Positions 19,232 to 54,443 are shown, numbered from the stretch's first letter. The stretch is 64,000 nt of DNA from Anaerolineae bacterium (GCA_034435055.1 DAOTXS010000097.1:66864-130863), one strand, 5' to 3'. The notes: generated by a model not told the origin, from the sequence alone. Made by a program: numbers and translations.

Positions 19232-19274
19232 GCCTCTGGCGTTTATTCGACGCGCCCGAGGCGTTTGTTTTTTA
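19232..19274 (+). promoter_or_regulatory. Terminator-like hairpin plus T-tract inside the hydrogenase 5' leader (possible attenuator)
   Basis: GCCTCTGGCG tttattcgacg CGCCCGAGGC (10-bp stem, 1 mismatch) is followed by gtttgtttttt. There is no upstream plus-strand gene to terminate. It lies ~90 nt before the small-subunit ATG. Confidence 0.45.
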
Positions 19275-19360
19275 TCGCACCAGCCAAGGAGGTGAATCTA
19301 GCAAAGTATAACGAATCAACTTTACGCGGCAATGGTTCCTCTGATGAAAGGAGTCGGTCT

Positions 19361-20488
19361 ATGAATGACTTGCCCCAGGAGTGGGAAAAAGTTCTCGATC
19401 GCAAAGGGGTTACGCGGCGAGATTTCCTCAAATTCTGTTCGCTGATGGCGGCGACGCTGGTTCTTCCTCCGCGTTACATTGAGCAGATCGCCAAGGCGTT
19501 GGTGACGGTGCCACGTCCGCCGCTGGTGTGGTTGGAATTCCAAGATTGTGCCGGCAACACCGAAGCACTCCTCCGCGTCAGCCGTCCCTCGATTGGTGAA
19601 CTCGTCCTCGACACGCTCTCGGTAGATTATCACGAAACGATTATGGCGCCCGCCGGCAAAGCCGCCGAAAAATCATTGCAAGACACGATTGCCAAGAACA
19701 AGGGCAAATACATCACCGTCGTAGAAGGTTCGATTCCCACGAAAGATGGCGGCATCTATTGCACAATTGGCGGACACACCGCGCTCGACATTGCGCGCCA
19801 AGTGTGCGGCAATGCCGCGGCGACAATCGCCGTCGGCGCGTGCGCGTTTGATGGCGGTTGGCCCTCTGCCTCGCCTAACCCGACCGGCGCGGTCGGCGTC
19901 AAAGATGCCGTCCCCGGCATCAAGTTGATCAACCTCCCTGGTTGCCCCGTCAACGCGGCAAACATTACCGCGACTATCGTCCACTATTTGACCTTTGGTG
20001 AATTGCCCGCCGCCGATCAACTGGGACGTCCTCTCTTTGCGTACGGTAAACGCATCCACGATAACTGCGAACGTCGTGCCCATTTCGATGCCGGTCAGTT
20101 CGTCGAAGAGTGGGGCGATGAACATCATCGGCAGGGGTGGTGTCTCTACAAGATGGGGTGCAAAGGTCCGGCCACCTATCACAACTGTCCCGTCGTTCGC
20201 TACAACGATGGCGTGAGTTGGCCCATCGGTTCGGGACACGGTTGCGTCGGCTGTAGCGAACCCAGTTTTTGGGACACGATGTCACCGTTCTATCGGCGCC
20301 TGCCCAACGTGGAGGGCTTGGGGGTCGAAGTGCAAGCCGATCAACTGGGCTTGGGGATCGTCGGTGGTGTGGCGGCGGCGTTTGCGGCGCACGGCGTCTT
20401 GAGCGCGATTCGCGCGCGGCAACAACCCATCGCGCGGCATGGTGAGGAAACCGTCAACGCTCAAGCCGATGAAGGAAAGCGAGGTTAA
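19361..20488 (+). CDS. hupS: [NiFe] uptake hydrogenase small subunit (group 1, Tat-exported, C-terminal TM anchor)
   Basis: It has the Tat motif 'TRRDFLKF' and conserved blocks LDTLSVDYHETIMAPAG, VGACAFDGG, LPGCPVN, HDNCERRAHFDAG, GWCLYKMGCKGP and GHGCVGCSEP. A C-terminal hydrophobic helix is present. The RBS aaaggag sits 7 nt upstream of ATG 19361. Confidence 0.95.
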   Translation: MNDLPQEWEKVLDRKGVTRRDFLKFCSLMAATLVLPPRYIEQIAKALVTVPRPPLVWLEFQDCAGNTEALLRVSRPSIGELVLDTLSVDYHETIMAPAGKAAEKSLQDTIAKNKGKYITVVEGSIPTKDGGIYCTIGGHTALDIARQVCGNAAATIAVGACAFDGGWPSASPNPTGAVGVKDAVPGIKLINLPGCPVNAANITATIVHYLTFGELPAADQLGRPLFAYGKRIHDNCERRAHFDAGQFVEEWGDEHHRQGWCLYKMGCKGPATYHNCPVVRYNDGVSWPIGSGHGCVGCSEPSFWDTMSPFYRRLPNVEGLGVEVQADQLGLGIVGGVAAAFAAHGVLSAIRARQQPIARHGEETVNAQADEGKRG

Positions 20489-20490
20489 CG

Positions 20491-22197
20491 ATGGCAAAGA
20501 TTGCAATTGACCCCATCACGCGCATCGAAGGCCATTTGCGCATCGAAGTTCAGGTGGACGGCGGCAAGGTTACCGATGCGTGGAGTTCCAGCACGATGTT
20601 TCGTGGGATGGAAATCATCCTCAAGGGACGCGATCCGCGCGATGCCTGGGTCTTTACGCAACGCATCTGCGGCGTCTGCACAACCGTTCACGCGGCAACC
20701 TCGGTGCGCGCGGTGGAAAACGCGCTCGGCATTACGATTCCGCTCAACGCGCAGATCATTCGTAATATCATCGAAGGCAGCCAGTTTGTCCAGGATCACG
20801 TCATCCACTTTTATCACCTCCACGCGCTCGATTGGGTGGACATTGTGAGCGCGCTCAAAGCCGATCCTGCCGCCACGGCAAAACTCGCGCAATCCATTTC
20901 GGATTGGCCCAACTCGTCCGAGGCGTACTTCAAGGGTGTGCAAAACAAAGTCAAAGCGTTTGTCGAATCGGGGCAACTGGGTCCCTTTGCGAACGCGTAC
21001 TGGGGACACCCCGCCTACAAGTTGCCGCCCGAAGCAAACCTGATGGCGGTCGCGCACTATCTTGAAGCGCTCGATTGGCAACGCGAGATTATTCGTATCC
21101 ACGCCCTGCTCGGCGCCAAGAATCCGCATCTGCAGACGTATCTGGTCGGCGGGATGTCCATTCCGATTGATCCCAACAGTCAGAATGCCATCAACGCGGA
21201 CAAGATCGCGCTGATGAAAAAGTGGCTGGCGCAAGCGCGTCAGTTCGTCGAAAAAGTGTACATACCCGATCTGCTCGCCGTCGCGCCGTTCTACAAGGAC
21301 TGGGCGGGTTATGGCGCCGGGCTGGGCAACTTTCTGGCGTACGGTGAGTTTCCGCAAGCCGCTGACAACTCGCAACTCTTTTTGCCGCGCGGCGTCATCC
21401 TCAACAAAGACCTGAGCAAGGTCCTGCCGATGGATCACCAAAAAGTTGCCGAGTATGTCACGCATTCGTGGTACGAGTACGGCGCCGGCGATGCCAAGTC
21501 ACTGCATCCTTGGGAGGGAGAAACCAATCCCAAGTACACGGGACCCCAACCGCCGTTCGAGGCGATGGTCGGCGACGGTGCCAAGTATTCCTGGCTCAAA
21601 GCGCCGCGCTACGACGGCAACGCGATGGAAGTGGGACCGCTGGCGCGGATGCTCGTGGCGTATGCGTCGGGGGTCAAGCCGGTGGTGGACACGGTCAATC
21701 TCGTTTTGAAAACGCTCGGCGTCGGACCCGAAGCGCTCTTCTCGACCCTTGGTCGCACCGCCGCACGCGGCATCGAAACGCTTGTCCTCGCGCAGCAACT
21801 GGAGGGCTGGGTGGATCAACTCGCGGCAAACATCAAGCGCGGCGATCTCAAAGTGCACAACGGCGAGAAATGGGATCCATCGAAATGGCCCGCGGAAGCC
21901 AAGGGCTGGGGATTCTTGGAAGCGCCGCGCGGCGCGCTGGGGCACTGGGTACGCATCAAAAACGGCGCCATCGAAAACTATCAATGCGTCGTTCCGTCCA
22001 CGTGGAACGGCTCCCCGCGCGATGCGAGTGGCAAGCGCGGTGCGTGGGAACAAGCGCTCATCGGTACGCCGGTCGCTAATCCCGAACAACCCATCGAAAT
22101 CTTGCGCACCGTCCACTCGTTCGATCCGTGTATGGCGTGTGCCGTCCATGTGGTTGATCCGAACGGGCGTGAGATGATGAGCGTCAAGGTCAAGTGA
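20491..22197 (+). CDS. hupL: [NiFe] uptake hydrogenase large subunit (group 1)
   Basis: The N-terminal motif is 'RIEGHLRIEV...QRICGVCTTVH'. The C-terminal motif is 'DPCMACAVH' followed by a 15-aa extension that the maturation protease removes. Confidence 0.97.
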   Translation: MAKIAIDPITRIEGHLRIEVQVDGGKVTDAWSSSTMFRGMEIILKGRDPRDAWVFTQRICGVCTTVHAATSVRAVENALGITIPLNAQIIRNIIEGSQFVQDHVIHFYHLHALDWVDIVSALKADPAATAKLAQSISDWPNSSEAYFKGVQNKVKAFVESGQLGPFANAYWGHPAYKLPPEANLMAVAHYLEALDWQREIIRIHALLGAKNPHLQTYLVGGMSIPIDPNSQNAINADKIALMKKWLAQARQFVEKVYIPDLLAVAPFYKDWAGYGAGLGNFLAYGEFPQAADNSQLFLPRGVILNKDLSKVLPMDHQKVAEYVTHSWYEYGAGDAKSLHPWEGETNPKYTGPQPPFEAMVGDGAKYSWLKAPRYDGNAMEVGPLARMLVAYASGVKPVVDTVNLVLKTLGVGPEALFSTLGRTAARGIETLVLAQQLEGWVDQLAANIKRGDLKVHNGEKWDPSKWPAEAKGWGFLEAPRGALGHWVRIKNGAIENYQCVVPSTWNGSPRDASGKRGAWEQALIGTPVANPEQPIEILRTVHSFDPCMACAVHVVDPNGREMMSVKVK

Positions 22198-26952: not shown

Positions 26953-28037
<1,085 letters not shown>

Positions 28038-28041
<4 letters not shown>

Positions 28042-29096
28042 GCGCAGTCGAATTTACCGGCGTGCAATGTCCGATTCCCATCAACGAATATCCGCACATC
28101 ACGCTGGCGCACGGCGGCGGCGGACGCTTGATGCAAATGCTCATCGAAAAAATGTTTGTACCGTCGTTTGCCAACCCCGCGCTGGAATCCTTGCACGATG
28201 GCGCGATCATCGAAACGCATGGGGCGCGCCTGGCATTCACCACCGACTCGTATGTGATTCATCCGATTTTTTTCCCGGGCGGTGACATTGGTTCGCTGGC
28301 GGTGCACGGCACGGTGAATGATTTGGCGATGTGTGGCGCGCAACCGCTCGCGCTTTCCTCGGCGCTGATTTTGGAAGAGGGCTTGCCGATGCACGATTTG
28401 TGGCGCATTGTGCAATCGATGCAGAACGCGGCGCAAAAGGTTGGCGTCCCGATTGTGACCGGCGATACCAAAGTGGTGGATCGCGGCAAGGGCGATGGCG
28501 TGTTCATCAATACCGCCGGCATCGGCATGATTCCGGCGCACATTCGCGTTGCGCCACAGCGGGCGCAACCCGGCGACCTCGTTTTGCTTAGCGGTGCGAT
28601 TGCAGTACACGGCATCGCGATTATGTCGGTGCGTGAGGGATTGGACTTTGAAACGCAACTGCAATCCGATTCCGCGCCATTGCACGACATCGTCGCGCGG
28701 GTGCTCGAGGTGGCGGGCGAACACGTTCACGTTTTGCGTGATCCCACCCGCGGCGGAGTGGCAAGCACGTTGAACGAGATCGCCGCATCGGCGAAGGTTG
28801 GGATCCGCTTGCAAGAAACGCAGATTCCAATTGACGATGCGGTGCGCGGCGCGTGCGAAATCCTGGGATTCGATCCGCTCTACGTCGCGAACGAAGGCAA
28901 ATTTCTCGCCATCGTCGCGCGCGAGGTGGCGGAGCAAGTTCTGGCGACGATGCAGGCGCATCCGTTAGGCAAACAATCCGCGATAATCGGTGAGGTGGTT
29001 GCGGATCATCCTGGCAAAGTGTATTTGAAAAGTCGGATTGGTGGAATGCGTGTGGTGGATATGCTCAGTGGCGAGCAACTACCGAGGATTTGCTGA
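28038..29096 (+). CDS. hypE: Hydrogenase maturation carbamoyl dehydratase HypE
   Basis: It has '[14 protein letters not shown]' and an AIR-synthase-like fold pattern, and the C-terminus ends in 'PRIC'. It forms an ATGA overlap with hypD. Confidence 0.95.
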
Positions 29097-37796: not shown

Positions 37797-37880
37797 CAAG
37801 ACTCCGAAAATTGAGATGCCGCTATTTTATCAGTTTGTGGTGCGATGGCAAATGTCGGGCGCACACGCAAATCGATTCTG

Positions 37881-37961
37881 TGGTATAATAGCGTTACTTG
37901 CGTATTAGGATTTGTGCGCGCGTTTTGTCGCCAGACCCTCGTATGGGCTGGCGCGTTTTTG
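37881..37961 (+). promoter_or_regulatory. Extended -10 promoter (TGGTATAAT) followed by a terminator-like leader hairpin upstream of carD
   Basis: tgGTATAAT lies at 37881-37889. The hairpin GCCAGACCC tcgtat GGGCTGGC (37930-37952) is followed by gcgtttttgtt. The RBS gaaaggag precedes ATG 37984. Confidence 0.4.
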
Positions 37962-37983
37962 TTCTGAGCGGAAAGGAGCAACG

Positions 37984-38475
37984 ATGACATTTCAAGTGGG
38001 CGATGCGGTGATTCATCCCGTGCACGGAGTTGGGCATATTGTTGGCATTACCGAAAAGCGATTGATCGAAGATCGCTCGCGGTTGTATTACGAGATCGCC
38101 ACAGAAAAAAGTACCATCTGGATGCCTATCGAATCATCCGCCACGATTGGGTTGCGGCGCGTGGTTGCCAAACGTGAGTTGGCGCGTTATCGCACTACGT
38201 TAAAAAGCCGCGCCGCACCGTTGAACGATAATCACAGCAAACGCCAAGCGGAGATTGCTCTCCGGCGAAAAGCCGGCTCGCTCAAGATTCTGTGTGAAGT
38301 GGTGCGTGATCTAACTGCGCGGAGCGCACGCAAACGGCTGACGCAATTGGACAACGATACGTTGCGAAAAGCGCGCGCGGAGTTGGAGCGCGAGTGGGCG
38401 GCGGCGGCAGGGATTTCGGTTGCCGATGCCAGCGCGGAAATCGAAGCGCTGTTGAAGGATAAACGACGAACGTAG
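37984..38475 (+). CDS. CarD/CdnL family RNA-polymerase-binding transcription regulator
   Basis: It begins 'FQVGDAVIHPVHGVGHIVGI' (the Tudor-like RID) and has a helical C-terminal domain. Confidence 0.85.
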   Translation: MTFQVGDAVIHPVHGVGHIVGITEKRLIEDRSRLYYEIATEKSTIWMPIESSATIGLRRVVAKRELARYRTTLKSRAAPLNDNHSKRQAEIALRRKAGSLKILCEVVRDLTARSARKRLTQLDNDTLRKARAELEREWAAAAGISVADASAEIEALLKDKRRT

Positions 38476-38485
38476 AAGAAATCAA

Positions 38486-38515
38486 GGCGACGCATTGAGG
38501 TGCGTCGCCTTTTTT
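38486..38515 (+). terminator. Rho-independent terminator
   Basis: GGCGACGC attgaggt GCGTCGCC followed by TTTTTT. Confidence 0.8.
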
Positions 38516-38563
38516 GTAACGTGCGCTGAAACATAGTTTTGGGGTCGTGGACGTCCGCCGGTT

Positions 38564-39865
38564 TTACGGGGTCAATCGTTGCTGGTCGCGCGGAAACATC
38601 GTTGCCTCGCGCAAGTTAGACAAGCCGCACAACTGCATCACGAATCGCTCAAGTCCAATCGCAAATCCACCGTGCGGCGGCATTCCAAATTTCATCGGCT
38701 CGAGATAATACGCGAATGGTTCGATGGAGAAATTGGCGCGGGCAAGTGCGGCGAGATAATCTTCGTAACGATGTAACCGCTGACCGCCGGTAACGAGTTC
38801 TGTTCCGCGAAAAAGCAAATCGAACGAGTACGAGTACGTTGGTTCGGCGGGATCAGGGTGCGTGTAAAACGGCCGCTTGGCCATCGGATAACCGACGACA
38901 AAGAGAAAATCCGAGTTATATTTTTCGCGCGCCCATTCGCTAAGCCAGCGTTCGTGTTGCGGCGCGAGGTCAAGTTCGCCGCGACAATCCTCGCCGTATT
39001 TTTCAAAGATGAGTTGTTGCGCGTCTTTGAAATGGATGTGTGGAAAGGTTTCCGGCGCGTCCGGCATTTTCACTTCCAACAATGCCAACTCCGCCGACTT
39101 GGTTTCCGCCAATCGCGTCAGAATGTGCCGCACGACGCGCGTGAGCATCGCCATCACCGTGAAATGATTTTCGATAAAACCGAATTCGACGTCCATACTG
39201 ACATATTCGTTCACGTGCCGCGTCGTGCTGTGCGGTTCGGCGCGAAAGACCGGCGCGATTTCGTACACCCGCTCGAAAATCCCTACGCCGATTTGTTTGT
39301 AGAACTGCGGCGATTGCGCAAGAAACGCGCGTTTGCCAAAATAATCGACGGCGAAAACGTTCGCGCCGCTTTCGGTTGCCGACGCGACGAGTTTGGGAGA
39401 TTGAATCTCGGTGAATCCTTCACCGTTGAGAAATTCGCGGAACGCCGCCATAATCGCCGCCGATAATCGCAACAACGCACGCTTGCGCGGATGCCGCAAG
39501 CCGACGGTTGCGTGATCGAGAAAAACGTCGAGCGATGTGTTGATGACCGGTTTGTTGAGTGGAATCGTGAACGTGTCGGTAACCGGCGCAATCACGTGAA
39601 TCGCAATATCGTGCAATTCAAATCCGCTTGGCGCTTGGGATTCGGCGACAACCACGCCATCGATTTGAATCACGCTTTCGTTTTGCAAACCTTGAAGCGG
39701 CGCGAGCGCGTCGGCATCCTGGGTCATTGCTTGCGCAATGCCGGCGCGGTCGCGCACCAGCACGAAATTGATTTTGCCGAGCGCGCGCAAATTGTGCAAC
39801 CAGCCGGCAATCGTCACGCGCTCACCGACATGTTCGTGCAATTGGGTGGAAAGAATTCGTTGCAT
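38564..39865 (-). CDS. aspS: Aspartate--tRNA ligase, archaeal/eukaryal type (type 2, short form, likely non-discriminating)
   Basis: 433 aa from ATG 39865, with a GGAGG RBS 5 nt upstream. It lacks the bacterial insertion domain. It has an OB-fold N-terminus 'VTIAGWLHNLRALGKINFVLVRDRAG' and class II motifs ('FRAEPHSTTRH', 'GGFAIGLERF'). Confidence 0.92.
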   Translation of the reverse strand: MQRILSTQLHEHVGERVTIAGWLHNLRALGKINFVLVRDRAGIAQAMTQDADALAPLQGLQNESVIQIDGVVVAESQAPSGFELHDIAIHVIAPVTDTFTIPLNKPVINTSLDVFLDHATVGLRHPRKRALLRLSAAIMAAFREFLNGEGFTEIQSPKLVASATESGANVFAVDYFGKRAFLAQSPQFYKQIGVGIFERVYEIAPVFRAEPHSTTRHVNEYVSMDVEFGFIENHFTVMAMLTRVVRHILTRLAETKSAELALLEVKMPDAPETFPHIHFKDAQQLIFEKYGEDCRGELDLAPQHERWLSEWAREKYNSDFLFVVGYPMAKRPFYTHPDPAEPTYSYSFDLLFRGTELVTGGQRLHRYEDYLAALARANFSIEPFAYYLEPMKFGMPPHGGFAIGLERFVMQLCGLSNLREATMFPRDQQRLTP

Positions 39866-39900
39866 TGCACCCTCCGTTTTTTTATCCGCCAATCTTCACG

Positions 39901-40142
39901 AATAAAATAATCCCCCATCATCCTGTACGAAAGGACGAGGGGGGACTCGTGGTGCCACCTTTCTTTGTCACGCGCTCCTTCGACTGCTCCGCTCAAGATA
40001 CGTGTGACCTTGAAACTCGCTAACGGGAGTGAGCCGTCGCATCATGCGAATACGGGGGAGTGTTCTTCGCGTTTGACGAGAGACCGGCTTTTCACCTATC
40101 ACGGTTCTCTAAACTCTCGCGTCTCAAACGTTACTCGTCTCC
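39901..40142 (-). promoter_or_regulatory. T-box riboswitch leader (tRNA-sensing transcription attenuator) controlling aspS
   Basis: Read on the minus strand. Stem I has AGTA in the specifier loop, the AG bulge 'TTAGAGAA', and the distal loop 'GATAGGTGAAAAG'. The T-box sequence 'AAAGGTGGCACCACGAG' is present. The terminator TCCCCCCTCGTCCT ttcgtac AGGATGATGGGGGA is followed by TTATTTTATT. Confidence 0.85.
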
Positions 40143-40148
40143 GCTCTT

Positions 40149-40177
40149 TTTATAACACATCTCGATGGATTGGTCAA
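40149..40177 (-). promoter_or_regulatory. Candidate promoter of the T-box/aspS transcript (TTGACC-17-TATAAA on minus strand)
   Basis: Hexamers at 40177-40172 and 40154-40149, immediately upstream of Stem I. Confidence 0.5.
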
Positions 40178-40310
40178 TTGACAAGGCGTGAATTTGGAAA
40201 ATGAATCGCGGCTCGATTTTCTTGCTTTTGCGTGTTGAACGTGATAAACTATTTCTAGCCAGTGCGTCGGATAAATTGTCCGACCCAGATTATCTGGCAA
40301 TGAGACGATT

Positions 40311-41687
40311 ATGGCACAGTACACACTCGAACCTTTCAAAATCAAATCGGTCGAAGCGATTCCGGTGACGACGCGCGCCGAGCGCGAAAAATTTATTGCC
40401 GATGCTGGCTACAATATTTTTCGCTTGCCGAGCCGTGCGGTTACCATCGATTTCCTCACCGATTCCGGCACCAGCGCGATGAGCGACCATCAATGGGCAG
40501 GAATGCTCGCCGGCGACGAATCGTACGCCGGGTCGAAAAATTATTTTCACCTCGCGCAAGTCGTCCGCGATATTTTTGGCTTTGAGCAATTTGTGCCGAC
40601 GCATCAGGGACGCGGCGCAGAACAAGTGCTGTTCAACATCCTTGTGCAACCCGGCAAAGTGGTGCCCAGCAACACACATTTCGACACGACGCGCGCAAAC
40701 ATCGAAGCGATTGGCGGTGTCGCGCTCGACCTCGTGATTCCCGAAGGACTCGATCCGACGAATCGGCATCCGTTCAAAGGGAATATGAATCTGGCGAATT
40801 TGCAAAAGACAATTGAGCGTGTCGGCGTCGAAAACATTCCGCTGGCGATGATGACGATCACGAATAACGCGGTTGGCGGTCAGCCGGTTTCACTAGCGAA
40901 TATTCGCGCGACGAAAGAATTGCTCGCGCGGTACAAGATTCCGTTTTTCATCGATGCGTGTCGTTACGCTGAGAATTGTTATTTTATCCAGCAACGAGAA
41001 GATGATTATCGCCACAAATCGATCATTGAAATCGCGCGCGAAATTTTTGCGTATGCCGATGGCTTTACGATGAGCGCGAAGAAAGATGGACTGGTGAACA
41101 TCGGTGGACTGTTGGCGGCGCGCGATGCAAAATTATTCGAGCAGATTCAGAATCGCTTGATTCTCACCGAGGGCTTTGTGTCGTACGGCGGACTCGCGCG
41201 GCGCGATTTGGAGGCGATGGCACGCGGCTTGGTCGAAGCGACCGACGAAAAATATTTGGCGTATCGTACCGGGCAGATTCGTTATCTTGCCGAGCGCTTG
41301 CAAGAAAATCGTATTCCAATCGTCGAACCGCCGGGCGGCCACGCGCTCTTTCTCGACGGCAAACGATTCCTGCCGCACATTCCGCAGTCGCAGTTTCCGG
41401 CGCAGGCGTTGACCATTGCGTTGTATGTGGAAGGCGGCATTCGCGGGTGCGAGATTGGGAGTGTGATGTTCGCGCATAAAGACGCGGCGACCGGCGAGAT
41501 GAAATATCCTGCACTCGATTTGGTGCGGTTGGCAATTCCGCGCCGCGTGTACACGCAATCGCATTTGGATTACGTCGCGGACGTGATTATCGAGTTGTAT
41601 CGCAAGCGCGAGACGATTCGTGGCGTCAAGCTAGTTTGGGAAGCGCCGTTGCTGCGACATTTCACGGCGAAGTTTGAGAGGGTGTGA
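40311..41687 (+). CDS. PLP-dependent beta-eliminating lyase (tryptophanase / tyrosine phenol-lyase family)
   Basis: It is collinear with TPL/TnaA as I remember them: 'EPFKIKSVE', 'DFLTDSGTSAMSDHQWAGM', 'PTHQGRGAEQ', the PLP-lysine context 'SAKKDGLVNIGG', and 'LAIPRRVYTQSHLDYVAD'. Confidence 0.88.
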   Translation: MAQYTLEPFKIKSVEAIPVTTRAEREKFIADAGYNIFRLPSRAVTIDFLTDSGTSAMSDHQWAGMLAGDESYAGSKNYFHLAQVVRDIFGFEQFVPTHQGRGAEQVLFNILVQPGKVVPSNTHFDTTRANIEAIGGVALDLVIPEGLDPTNRHPFKGNMNLANLQKTIERVGVENIPLAMMTITNNAVGGQPVSLANIRATKELLARYKIPFFIDACRYAENCYFIQQREDDYRHKSIIEIAREIFAYADGFTMSAKKDGLVNIGGLLAARDAKLFEQIQNRLILTEGFVSYGGLARRDLEAMARGLVEATDEKYLAYRTGQIRYLAERLQENRIPIVEPPGGHALFLDGKRFLPHIPQSQFPAQALTIALYVEGGIRGCEIGSVMFAHKDAATGEMKYPALDLVRLAIPRRVYTQSHLDYVADVIIELYRKRETIRGVKLVWEAPLLRHFTAKFERV

Positions 41688-52367: not shown

Positions 52368-54443
52368 ATGCCAGGAGGATATACCGGCAAGATTCTTCGA
52401 ATTGACTTGTCGACCGGCAAGGTTACTTCGGAGGATACTTCCAAATACAAAGACTTTCTTGGGGGCACTGGGCTGGGCTATAAAATTCTATGGGACGAAG
52501 TCAAGCCCGGCACCAAAGCGTGGGACCCTGAGAATCGCATTATCTTCGGCGTCGGACCGCTGACCGGATCCGGTTCGCCGCTTTCCGGTCGCGTTTCCAT
52601 CACCTCGCTGTGGCCCGTCCACATCAATGAATTACCCGGCACCGGACATATGGGTGGTCATTGGGGTGCGGAACTGAAATTCGCCGGCTGGGATTCGCTA
52701 ATCGTTCAAGGGAAAGCCGCCAAACCGGTGTGGATTTACATCAAAGACGATAAGGTGGAAATCCGCGATGCCAAGAATCTGTGGGGCAATGGGATTTTCC
52801 GCGCAACCGAAGAAATCTGCAACGAAGTTGGGTCAGATACGCAGGTTGCCGCGATTGGTCAAGCCGGCGAGAATCTCGTCCGACTTTCGTGCGTGTTGTG
52901 CAATCGTTCGCACTCGGCGGGCGGCGTCGGCAGTATTCTCGGTTCCAAGAACTTGAAAGCGATTGCTGTCAAAGGTTCCGGCTCGGTGGCGATTGCCGCT
53001 GACAAAAAGGCGTGGAAAGATTTGACCTACGAATATCTTTCCTTGCTTGGTGCGAATAATCAAGGCGTCGTGCCGCGCACGCCGCAACCGTGGGCAGAGT
53101 ATTACGGAAATACTCGCTGGACGGCGCGCAAAGGTTTGTACTGGGGCGCGGCGAACCCGCCCATCGAAACCGGCGAATGTTCAGCCGATGATTTGAATCG
53201 CATCGGTTACCGGACGCAAAAGGGTGTCTTGGATCACGGCGAAGGTGTCGGTGAAAAATATCTCGTCCGAATGGGTGGTTGCTATTCCTGCCCGATTCGT
53301 TGCCATGCGTACACCTCGATGCCGCAACTGGAAACCAAGTACGGCGTCTCGCGGTATCAAGGCAACACCTGTACCGGCAATTCGTTCGGTAGCAGTTTCT
53401 TTAATCTGCCGAGTGGATCTGAGCTGAGAATGGAAGCATCGCAACTGGGCAGTGCCTTGGCAGATGACTATGGACTGTGGAGCGACTACGGACAATGGCC
53501 CCGCGACTTTGTCTATTTGTACAGAAACAGTTTTCTTAAGGCAAAGCTTCCGGCGGCAGAATACAACAGTATTCCCTGGCAAAAGCTGGAGAATGGTGAT
53601 CCCTCATTCCTGCAAGACCTTTTCCGACGCATTGCCTTTAAAGAGGGTGAACTGGGCAAAACATTTGCGGAAGGTCCTGCGCGCGTGGCGAAAAAATGGC
53701 CCGAGTTAGCGGCGTGGCATCAGACGTACGAATCGAGTTGTTGGAAAGATGATCATGCCAAGCACCACGAAGGCGGGCAGGTTGGCGCGTTGCTCAATAT
53801 GTTGTACAATCGCGATGTGCAATGTCACACCCATTCCAACTTCCAAGGAAGTGGTTTACCGCTATCGCTGATGAAAGAAATCTCGGCGGAGCTGTTTGGT
53901 TCACCGGACGCGTTCGATGCCTCCGGAAATAACACGCCGATGAACAAAGGCAAAGCGGTCTTCACCAAAATGTCGATTGTGTATCTCGAGTTGCACAACT
54001 CGCTGACCGCGTGCAACTGGACGCTTCCCACATGGACTTCGCCGCGCAAGGATCGCAAGTATCGCGGCGATGTTGAGATGGAAGCAAAAGTGTTGTCCGC
54101 GGTGACCGGCGAAAAGATCAGCCGAGCGGATCTCGAAAAGACTGGTCTGCGCATCTTGACGTTGTTCCGCGCGCTCACCGCGTTGTATGCAAACGAAAAG
54201 AATATGCGCGTCAATCACGATAAAATGAACGACTGGGTCTTTGACTATCCGGCTAGCGCCAAGCCCTTCACGCCGGGGGTTGCCAAGATGGACAAGGCAG
54301 ACATCGAACTGGGCAAGGATTTGCTCTACGCTGAACTTGGTTGGGACAAAGCAACCGGAATGCCGACCAAGGCGACGCTCGATAGTCTTGGCTTGGGGTA
54401 CGTTGCCGACACACTTGCGAAAGCCGGTTTGTTGCCGGCTTGA
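52368..54443 (+). CDS. Aldehyde:ferredoxin oxidoreductase (AOR) family tungsto/molybdopterin enzyme
   Basis: The N-terminal 'GYTGKILRIDLSTGKVTSE...FLGGTGLGYKILWDEV' is the typical AOR start. The 4Fe-4S motif is 'GGCYSCPIRCH'. The protein is 691 aa and has no signal peptide. Confidence 0.9.
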   Translation: MPGGYTGKILRIDLSTGKVTSEDTSKYKDFLGGTGLGYKILWDEVKPGTKAWDPENRIIFGVGPLTGSGSPLSGRVSITSLWPVHINELPGTGHMGGHWGAELKFAGWDSLIVQGKAAKPVWIYIKDDKVEIRDAKNLWGNGIFRATEEICNEVGSDTQVAAIGQAGENLVRLSCVLCNRSHSAGGVGSILGSKNLKAIAVKGSGSVAIAADKKAWKDLTYEYLSLLGANNQGVVPRTPQPWAEYYGNTRWTARKGLYWGAANPPIETGECSADDLNRIGYRTQKGVLDHGEGVGEKYLVRMGGCYSCPIRCHAYTSMPQLETKYGVSRYQGNTCTGNSFGSSFFNLPSGSELRMEASQLGSALADDYGLWSDYGQWPRDFVYLYRNSFLKAKLPAAEYNSIPWQKLENGDPSFLQDLFRRIAFKEGELGKTFAEGPARVAKKWPELAAWHQTYESSCWKDDHAKHHEGGQVGALLNMLYNRDVQCHTHSNFQGSGLPLSLMKEISAELFGSPDAFDASGNNTPMNKGKAVFTKMSIVYLELHNSLTACNWTLPTWTSPRKDRKYRGDVEMEAKVLSAVTGEKISRADLEKTGLRILTLFRALTALYANEKNMRVNHDKMNDWVFDYPASAKPFTPGVAKMDKADIELGKDLLYAELGWDKATGMPTKATLDSLGLGYVADTLAKAGLLPA

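Follow-up and report, generated by a model that had tools for sequence, protein, structure and literature searches.

A T-box leader with AAC in its specifier slot precedes an archaeal-type non-discriminating aspartyl-tRNA synthetase gene in a member of the Chloroflexota

When a T-box leader stands before the gene of an aminoacyl-tRNA synthetase that serves two tRNAs, the specifier codon tells which tRNA pool sets the level of the enzyme. This question is raised by a locus in a 64,000-nt stretch of DNA from an Anaerolineae bacterium (the whole stretch is referred to here as the window), for which an earlier note had proposed a T-box leader with an Asn specifier, and not an Asp specifier, upstream of an archaeal-type aspartyl-tRNA synthetase (AspRS). 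The analysis reported here favours the same answer: a transcription-attenuating T-box riboswitch with the specifier AAC (Asn) probably controls a monocistronic gene for an archaeal-type non-discriminating AspRS. An Asn T-box before a non-discriminating AspRS is a kind already known; the new traits of the present case are the monocistronic gene, the Chloroflexota host and the absence of a K-turn. The most interesting by-product is the apparently recurrent, family-wide switching between Asp and Asn specifiers.

The leader RNA and its specifier slot

In a 1-kb search at an E-value threshold, the full length of the Rfam model RF00230 (positions 1-219) aligned to the leader on the minus strand, at E = 5e-16 and 74.3 bits. 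The curated gathering score for RF00230 stands at 93, and a default Rfam scan of the whole window at the gathering threshold reported no T-box. Although under the gathering score, the match is far beyond chance and the leader is a genuine T-box; the low score is mostly due to the deletion of both K-turn halves at the foot of Stem I. The sequence recurs in an independent public assembly, in which Logan contig SRR10095340_119120 has 100% identity over 37869..40332 (2464 bases), AAC included. Among the 15 leaders before archaeal-type aspS genes that were scanned with Rfam, the window's among them, 14 fall under the gathering score (41-82 bits vs 93), so that routine annotation misses them; the sole leader at threshold is that of locus L158 (95.8 bits). 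Each missed leader is an easy clue lost to the synthesis of Asn-tRNA in these uncultured bacteria. The features of the leader and its gene are the following.

40172..40177, minus strand: putative -35 box TTGACC, read from the sequence, 17 nt upstream of TATAAA
40149..40154, minus strand: putative -10 box TATAAA with TGT before it, from alignment with relatives
39928..40150, minus strand: T-box leader (RF00230 match)
40057..40142, minus strand: Stem I, with the closing helix GGAG (40142..40139) / CUCC (40060..40057) of the Rfam alignment
40132..40135, minus strand: AGUA, 5' half of the specifier-loop S-turn, aligned to the RF00230 AGUA consensus
40106..40110, minus strand: AG bulge AGAGA, the AGAGA consensus of RF00230
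40088..40100, minus strand: distal loop GAUAGGUGAAAAG, aligned to the GgUUGGUGaaA consensus, with GGUGAAA inside it matching
40066..40068, minus strand: GAA, 3' half of the specifier-loop S-turn, aligned to the RF00230 GAA consensus
40062..40064, minus strand: specifier triplet AAC (Asn), RF00230 model positions 94-96
40037..40049, minus strand: short Stem II hairpin, from the Rfam alignment only
40021..40037, minus strand: Stem IIA/B element ACGGCUCACUCCCGUUA, from the Rfam alignment only
39967..40008, minus strand: Stem III, GUCACACG paired with CGCGUGAC around a long loop in the Rfam alignment
39946..39962, minus strand: T-box sequence AAAGGUGGCACCACGAG, with UGGC at 39957..39954
39929..39963, minus strand: antiterminator, helices GAAAGG/CCUUUC and ACGAG/CUCGU around the 7-nt bulge UGGCACC (39957..39951)
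39901..39944, minus strand: intrinsic terminator, a G+C-rich hairpin (39944..39912) with the U-rich tail AUUAUUUUAUU (39911..39901)
38564..39865, minus strand: aspS, archaeal-type non-discriminating AspRS of 433 aa, with the Shine-Dalgarno sequence GGAGG at 39875..39871

Every hallmark that the earlier note had named was located on the reverse complement: AGTA in the specifier loop (AGUA at 40135..40132, in the 5' half of the loop), the AG bulge, the distal loop, the T-box sequence, and the terminator with its U-tract. Rfam aligns the 3' side of the specifier loop as C-GAA-G-AAC-A, with the CUCC that pairs with GGAG directly after it and AAC flanked by G at 40065 and A at 40061. The RF00230 consensus for the eight unpaired positions on this side is GAA-n-codon-purine, and the window has GAA-G-AAC-A (40068..40061). 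AAC at 40064..40062 is also the '+0' frame by the TBDB convention, which takes positions 2-4 from the bulge end (PMC7778990). The register chosen in the earlier note, with AAC and a following purine in the codon slot, is thus identical to that of the covariance model, which it had named as the check on its reading and which places AAC rather than GAC or GAU in the slot. Neither GAC nor GAU is present anywhere in the specifier loop, as it had stated, and the GAA that it gave as an alternative lies in the -1 frame, with C and not a purine as the next base.

At its base, Stem I of the window has no K-turn (GA motif), model columns 9-14 and 99-101 being deleted in the Rfam alignment, and the loss appears as an 11-nt gap against the related leaders L081, L001 and L002. 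The window is the only member among about 100 that lacks both K-turn halves; all other family members keep the K-turn. The region of the loss comprises 40139-40150 and 40050-40057 (minus strand), and the predicted transcription start also falls at the foot of Stem I. A MAFFT alignment of eight Stem I sequences misaligned the 5' end of the window, where the K-turn is missing, and was set aside; the structure was therefore written by hand, a Stem I covariance model (R1) was built from it, and the matches were realigned by R1. The window matches R1 with 54.7 bits (E = 3e-12), but R1 places its 5' strand wrongly (GAGU for GGAG), and the reading of the window rests on the Rfam alignment. The minimum free energy (MFE) fold of Stem I by itself is uninformative (z = -0.1). 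Its pairing of GAGU/ACUC in place of GGAG/CUCC was rejected because it uses up the conserved AGUA and conflicts with the homologues; AAC is unpaired in both folds. The AG bulge is invariant across the family alignment, and together with the distal loop it has the sequence expected of a tRNA-elbow platform.

In the 3' half of the leader, the T-box region of the Rfam alignment has high posterior probability, the antiterminator is the MFE fold of 39975..39928 (-10.6 kcal/mol), and the antiterminator sequence is invariant in the window, L081, L001 and L002. The terminator fold has -27.8 kcal/mol and z = -4.77, with 0 shuffles equally stable; a simple terminator scan missed this hairpin, which has an internal C.U mismatch. 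The 5' strand of the terminator overlaps the 3' strand of the antiterminator: the strand CUCGUCCUUU is common to both structures, and CUCGUCCU is shared between the hairpin 39944..39912 and the antiterminator. The two folds are therefore predicted to be mutually exclusive. As for the promoter, the closest relative L081 has the same arrangement (TTGACC-17 nt-TATAAC), and the -10 box of the window aligns with TATAAC in L081, TATAAA in L001 and TATAAT in L002, just upstream of each T-box. This would put the transcription start at about 40144..40140, directly at the foot of Stem I. A consensus promoter scan did not call the proposed promoter, whose -10 box ends in A and not T.

The UGGC bulge had been taken to predict a G discriminator that suits tRNA-Asn as well as tRNA-Asp. 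G73 is indeed the discriminator of both and of tRNA-Glu (PMC9976931), so UGGC suits any of the three, and it must be the codon that confers specificity. Genes for tRNA-Asn or tRNA-Asp, from which the discriminator base could be read, were found neither in the 64-kb window (no tRNA genes) nor in 57 related loci.

The synthetase gene and its neighbourhood

The product of the downstream gene scored above the cut-offs of both NCBIfam equivalog models for aspartate--tRNA(Asn) ligase, with 536.4 bits for NF003483 (cut-off 353) and 386.8 bits for TIGR00458 (cut-off 368.4), while the models for asparaginyl-tRNA synthetase (AsnRS) gave 256 and 227 bits, below their cut-offs of 414 and 343. A criterion for archaeal-type AspRS is the absence of the GAD insertion domain, which makes for a short protein of about 430 aa (PMC4206432), and the 433-aa protein lacks this domain. 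Its best match in the PDB is 1n9w (T. thermophilus AspRS2), and archaeal AspRS are also among its best solved relatives; the four best solved relatives are all AspRS, and AsnRS chains reach about half their score. The alignment to the 422-aa 1n9w runs from end to end, whereas bacterial-type models match in two pieces only. On these grounds the gene is assigned to the archaeal-type non-discriminating AspRS and not to AsnRS, in agreement with the archaeal-type AspRS that had been proposed.

In an alignment to 1b8a, His24 and Pro79 stand at the anticodon-binding positions that W26 and K85 take in T. kodakarensis AspRS, a discriminating enzyme. Residues that open the archaeal-type AspRS to tRNA-Asn were reportedly described by Feng et al. 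and by Charron et al. in 2003, and we take His24 and Pro79 to lie where archaeal-type enzymes of the non-discriminating and the discriminating kind differ. The His/Pro pair is present in 11 of 11 proteins behind AAC leaders and in 81 of 90 behind GAC leaders. The AspRS2 enzymes of T. thermophilus and D. radiodurans (1n9w, 3kfu) resemble the window protein in their end-to-end alignment (380 bits), and in the same His/Pro pair of the anticodon-binding domain; unlike the aspS of the window, which is T-box controlled, Thermus and Deinococcus have no Asp or Asn T-box listed in PMC3766115 (Additional file 2).

The next gene downstream of aspS is a convergent, CarD-like gene on the opposite strand, and aspS is therefore monocistronic, with no gatCAB in its operon. 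For the convergent gene (37912-38475, plus strand), the public gene call of the identical Logan contig lists the domains CarD_TRCF_RID and CarD_C; its longer, TTG-started ORF had no match in NCBIfam. Among the ORFs of 400-700 aa in the 64-kb window, none was identified as asnS, gatA, gatB, asnB or a bacterial-type aspS. Other genes of the window (19265-22197, 27888-29096, 52368-54443, 40311-41687) encode the small and large subunits of a [NiFe]-hydrogenase, HypE, an aldehyde:ferredoxin oxidoreductase and a tryptophanase, the last of which is transcribed divergently from the aspS leader.

Specifier codons in related leaders

Protein scans of genome and metagenome collections with the aspS product as query gave 160 loci. 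A simple motif count found GGTGGYACC upstream of the gene in about 72 of the first 80, and R1, run on all loci, yielded 62 + 41 matches, so that about 100 archaeal-type aspS genes have a Stem I upstream; they come from Chloroflexota, Actinomycetota and Firmicutes-like contigs. In an alignment of 62 leaders that was itself fitted to the model, pairing in the Stem I structure amounts to 91% and the covariation score is 0.57, and sliding the partners brings the score to no more than 0.13; in this model-fitted alignment the closing helix that fixes the slot reaches 95% pairing, and three of its four base pairs show compensatory changes. The leader is not universal in the family, since neither the T-box motif nor Stem I was found upstream of aspS in L003, L004, L005, L007 and L009, which are close homologues (63-66% identical) from Caldiserica/Cryosericum and some Anaerolineae.

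The slot holds GAC in 90 leaders and AAC in 11 (the window, L001, L093, L102, L147, L150, L151, L152, L153, L154 and L158), with L146, a weak match, in neither class. No other codon was placed in the slot in these about 100 leaders, those with an ambiguous register excepted. Comparison of related aspS leaders had been proposed as a check, and the predicted variation of the specifier is thereby seen. GAC is the cognate Asp codon, and its majority in the slot validates the register. Applied to the nine closest loci, RF00230 likewise gave GAC in L002, L006, L008, L010, L011 and L012 and AAC in L001; a second Rfam run confirmed AAC for L093, L102, L147, L150, L151 and L158. In the 14 leaders checked separately, its slot placements were the same as those of R1. 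All AAC-type genes that were tested encode non-discriminating AspRS, and none encodes AsnRS.

The register is less simple in the nearest relatives of the window. L081, the closest (protein 85% identical), has GAAAGACAA before CUCC, which gives ACA in the strict '+0' frame and GAC if one A is taken as extra; Rfam aligned ACA to the slot with the G as an insertion. L001 (protein 74% identical) has GAUGAACAC before CUCC, i.e. AAC with an extra C. The specifier state is thus unstable even inside the small clade of the window, L081 and L001. One extra base between GAC or AAC and the closing helix is seen in L081 (~805-817), L001 (~1318-1330), L133, L137 and L138, and the strict '+0' frame of such leaders reads ACA (Thr). 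A 2026 preprint describes the reassignment of ACA to Asp in some Acidimicrobiales; it is silent on T-boxes, and a link between the two was dropped.

On a rough neighbour-joining tree without support values, AAC occurs in at least four separate places: the group of the window and L001, the Ktedonobacteria-like L093, the Actinomycetota-like L102, and a low-GC Firmicutes-like clade. With ambiguous registers set aside, the sole variant of GAC is AAC, the codon of the enzyme's other tRNA substrate. That AAC recurs in at least four places and is the only variant argues for selection over drift. Within the Firmicutes-like clade, aspS-gatC-gatA follows every AAC leader (L147, L150-L154 and L158), and the gene behind the single GAC leader (L160) is an aspS with pilin and sortase genes next to it; selection therefore reads the slot in the manner expected. 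The distribution suggests several changes between Asp and Asn specifiers in the history of the family.

Two further observations concern the architecture of related loci. In L021 (~350-520) and L024 (~2810-2980), three copies of GGTGGYACC lie within 200 nt upstream of aspS, at -188/-186, -92 and -24, and may represent a tandem T-box or a repeated T-box 3' domain. In L150, from a human-gut contig, a Clostridiales-1 RNA (RF01699, 123 bits, above the gathering score) at 2719-2878 sits between the Asn T-box (2384-2678) and aspS2-gatCA; it is also present in L152, L153 and L154, likewise human-gut contigs.

The proposed effector tRNA and competing readings

From this anatomy we infer tRNA-Asn to be the effector of the window leader. 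Transcription would start a few bases upstream of Stem I; the GUU anticodon of tRNA-Asn would pair with AAC, and the tRNA elbow would stack on the platform of AG bulge and distal loop. The 3' GCCA of an uncharged tRNA would pair with UGGC and stabilise the weak antiterminator, giving read-through into aspS, and a tRNA with any aminoacyl group, be it Asp or Asn, would let the much stronger terminator form. Since a T-box senses only acylation of the 3' end, the leader would report the aspartylation of tRNA-Asn, not its amidation and not free asparagine. Synthesis of AspRS would be tied to, and the Asn specifier would mean that it is tuned to, this first step of the transamidation route of tRNA-dependent asparagine synthesis, and the aspartate tRNA would go unreported. 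The organism may use that route, as is usual for Chloroflexi (PMC2494555); the Chloroflexi analysed there by Wels et al., i.e. Dehalococcoides only, lack AsnRS. If AsnRS is indeed absent from the present organism, either tRNA would report whether AspRS is sufficient, which may be why the specifier flips. The leader itself, with no K-turn and a score below gathering, may have lost some of its function.

The precedent that the earlier note had named, the Asn T-box of C. acetobutylicum, is described in PMC4052509 and PMC4206432. According to these and PMC4574755, this 'NT-box' (Saad et al. 2012, JBC; 2013, PNAS) was found experimentally to govern a non-discriminating aspS with gatCAB. Asn T-boxes are also listed before aspS2-gatCAB in S. 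mutans, S. gordonii, S. sanguinis, C. scindens and C. bolteae (PMC3766115, Additional file 2), and none for Asn or Asp is listed for the five Chloroflexi analysed in the same paper. The window shares with the C. acetobutylicum NT-box and the aspS2-gatCAB regulon the AAC slot before an archaeal-type non-discriminating AspRS and the letters of an overlapping GAA, and its loop text GAAGAACA is identical to that of the aspS-gatCA contig L158. It differs from these systems in that aspS stands alone with no gatCAB behind it (L147, L150, L151 and L158 have gatC-gatA downstream), in its host (Chloroflexota instead of Firmicutes), in the absence of a K-turn, and in nearest relatives that carry GAC. The logic of the Asn T-box would thereby reach beyond Firmicutes operons to a stand-alone gene in Chloroflexota. 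Promoter position, Stem I, UGGC bulge, terminator and the orthologous gene are homologous to those of the Asp T-boxes of Chloroflexota and Actinomycetota (L002, L006, L008 Dictyobacter, Micromonospora, Nonomuraea, Kribbella and others), which, in contrast to the window with AAC and no K-turn, have GAC and keep the K-turn. Compared with the canonical glyQS and tyrS T-boxes (RF00230), the S-turn loop, AG bulge, distal loop, UGGN bulge, competing terminator and antiterminator and, beside the closing helix, a codon with a purine after it are all present, but the Stem I K-turn is missing, Stem II is very short and the score lies below the gathering threshold.

The leader might still be in effect an Asp T-box of a GAC family, in which AAC arose recently through the substitution of one base, or through the insertion of one (GAAGACA to GAAGAACA); it would then either keep a weak response to tRNA-Asp despite the mismatch at the first position of the codon, or be in decay with little regulation left. 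We consider this unlikely. It would sit well with the GAC of 90 of about 101 homologous leaders and of the closest relative L081 at the homologous position, with the loss of both K-turn halves in the window alone and its 74 bits against a gathering score of 93, and with the partial cross-induction of the B. cereus lysK T-box by a near-cognate tRNA documented in PMC2916919. Drift, however, should also have given GAU, GGC and CAC, and only AAC is seen in at least four lineages when ambiguous registers are set aside; the pairing of AAC with gatCA operons in the Firmicutes-like clade shows that the slot is functionally read; and the window has kept its antiterminator, T-box bulge, terminator and platform motifs intact, without change against its relatives. 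It is just as improbable that the loop is a two-codon sensor of the C. acetobutylicum type, on which tRNA-Glu (UUC on GAA) and tRNA-Asn (GUU on AAC) compete for overlapping triplets. GAAC does occupy 40065..40062 of the 8-nt 3' loop, a G precedes AAC in 6 of 8 distinct AAC leaders (the window, L001, L147, the L150 group, L151 and L158), tRNA-Glu has G73 too (PMC9976931), and both tRNAs bind such a loop according to Saad et al. 2013, as cited in PMC4052509 and PMC4574755. Yet the logic of that precedent is an operon that holds GatCAB, and the window has aspS by itself; no G is present before AAC in L093 (UAAC) and L102 (CAAC), and the G itself is explicable as a relic of GAA-GAC-A plus one inserted A; and the base after GAA is C instead of the usual purine.

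An ordinary Asn T-box before asnS, with the downstream gene encoding AsnRS, is hardly credible: AsnRS is a class IIb enzyme akin to archaeal-type AspRS and about as long, and the AsnRS models do match the protein, but they stay far under cut-offs that both non-discriminating AspRS models exceed, the solved relatives point the same way, and most of the family carries Asp specifiers. The reading in favour of tRNA-Asn has points against it as well, since UGGC fits tRNA-Asp and tRNA-Glu equally well, L081 has GAC or ACA, and L001 has an extra C before the helix. The slot alignment, the homologues and the identity of the gene nonetheless support what had been proposed at the outset, an Asn-specifier T-box before a non-discriminating AspRS.

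A wider reading of the family is tentative, and we hold it to be rather doubtful: GAC and AAC might form a functional dial, and not noise, by which lineages repeatedly rewire the governing tRNA, the AAC-type AspRS, with the monocistronic one of the window among them, being dedicated to Asn where another AspRS exists, or GAAC might sense both tRNA-Asn and tRNA-Glu outside a gatCAB operon. If either holds, the specifier would predict the sub-functionalisation of aminoacyl-tRNA synthetases from sequence alone.
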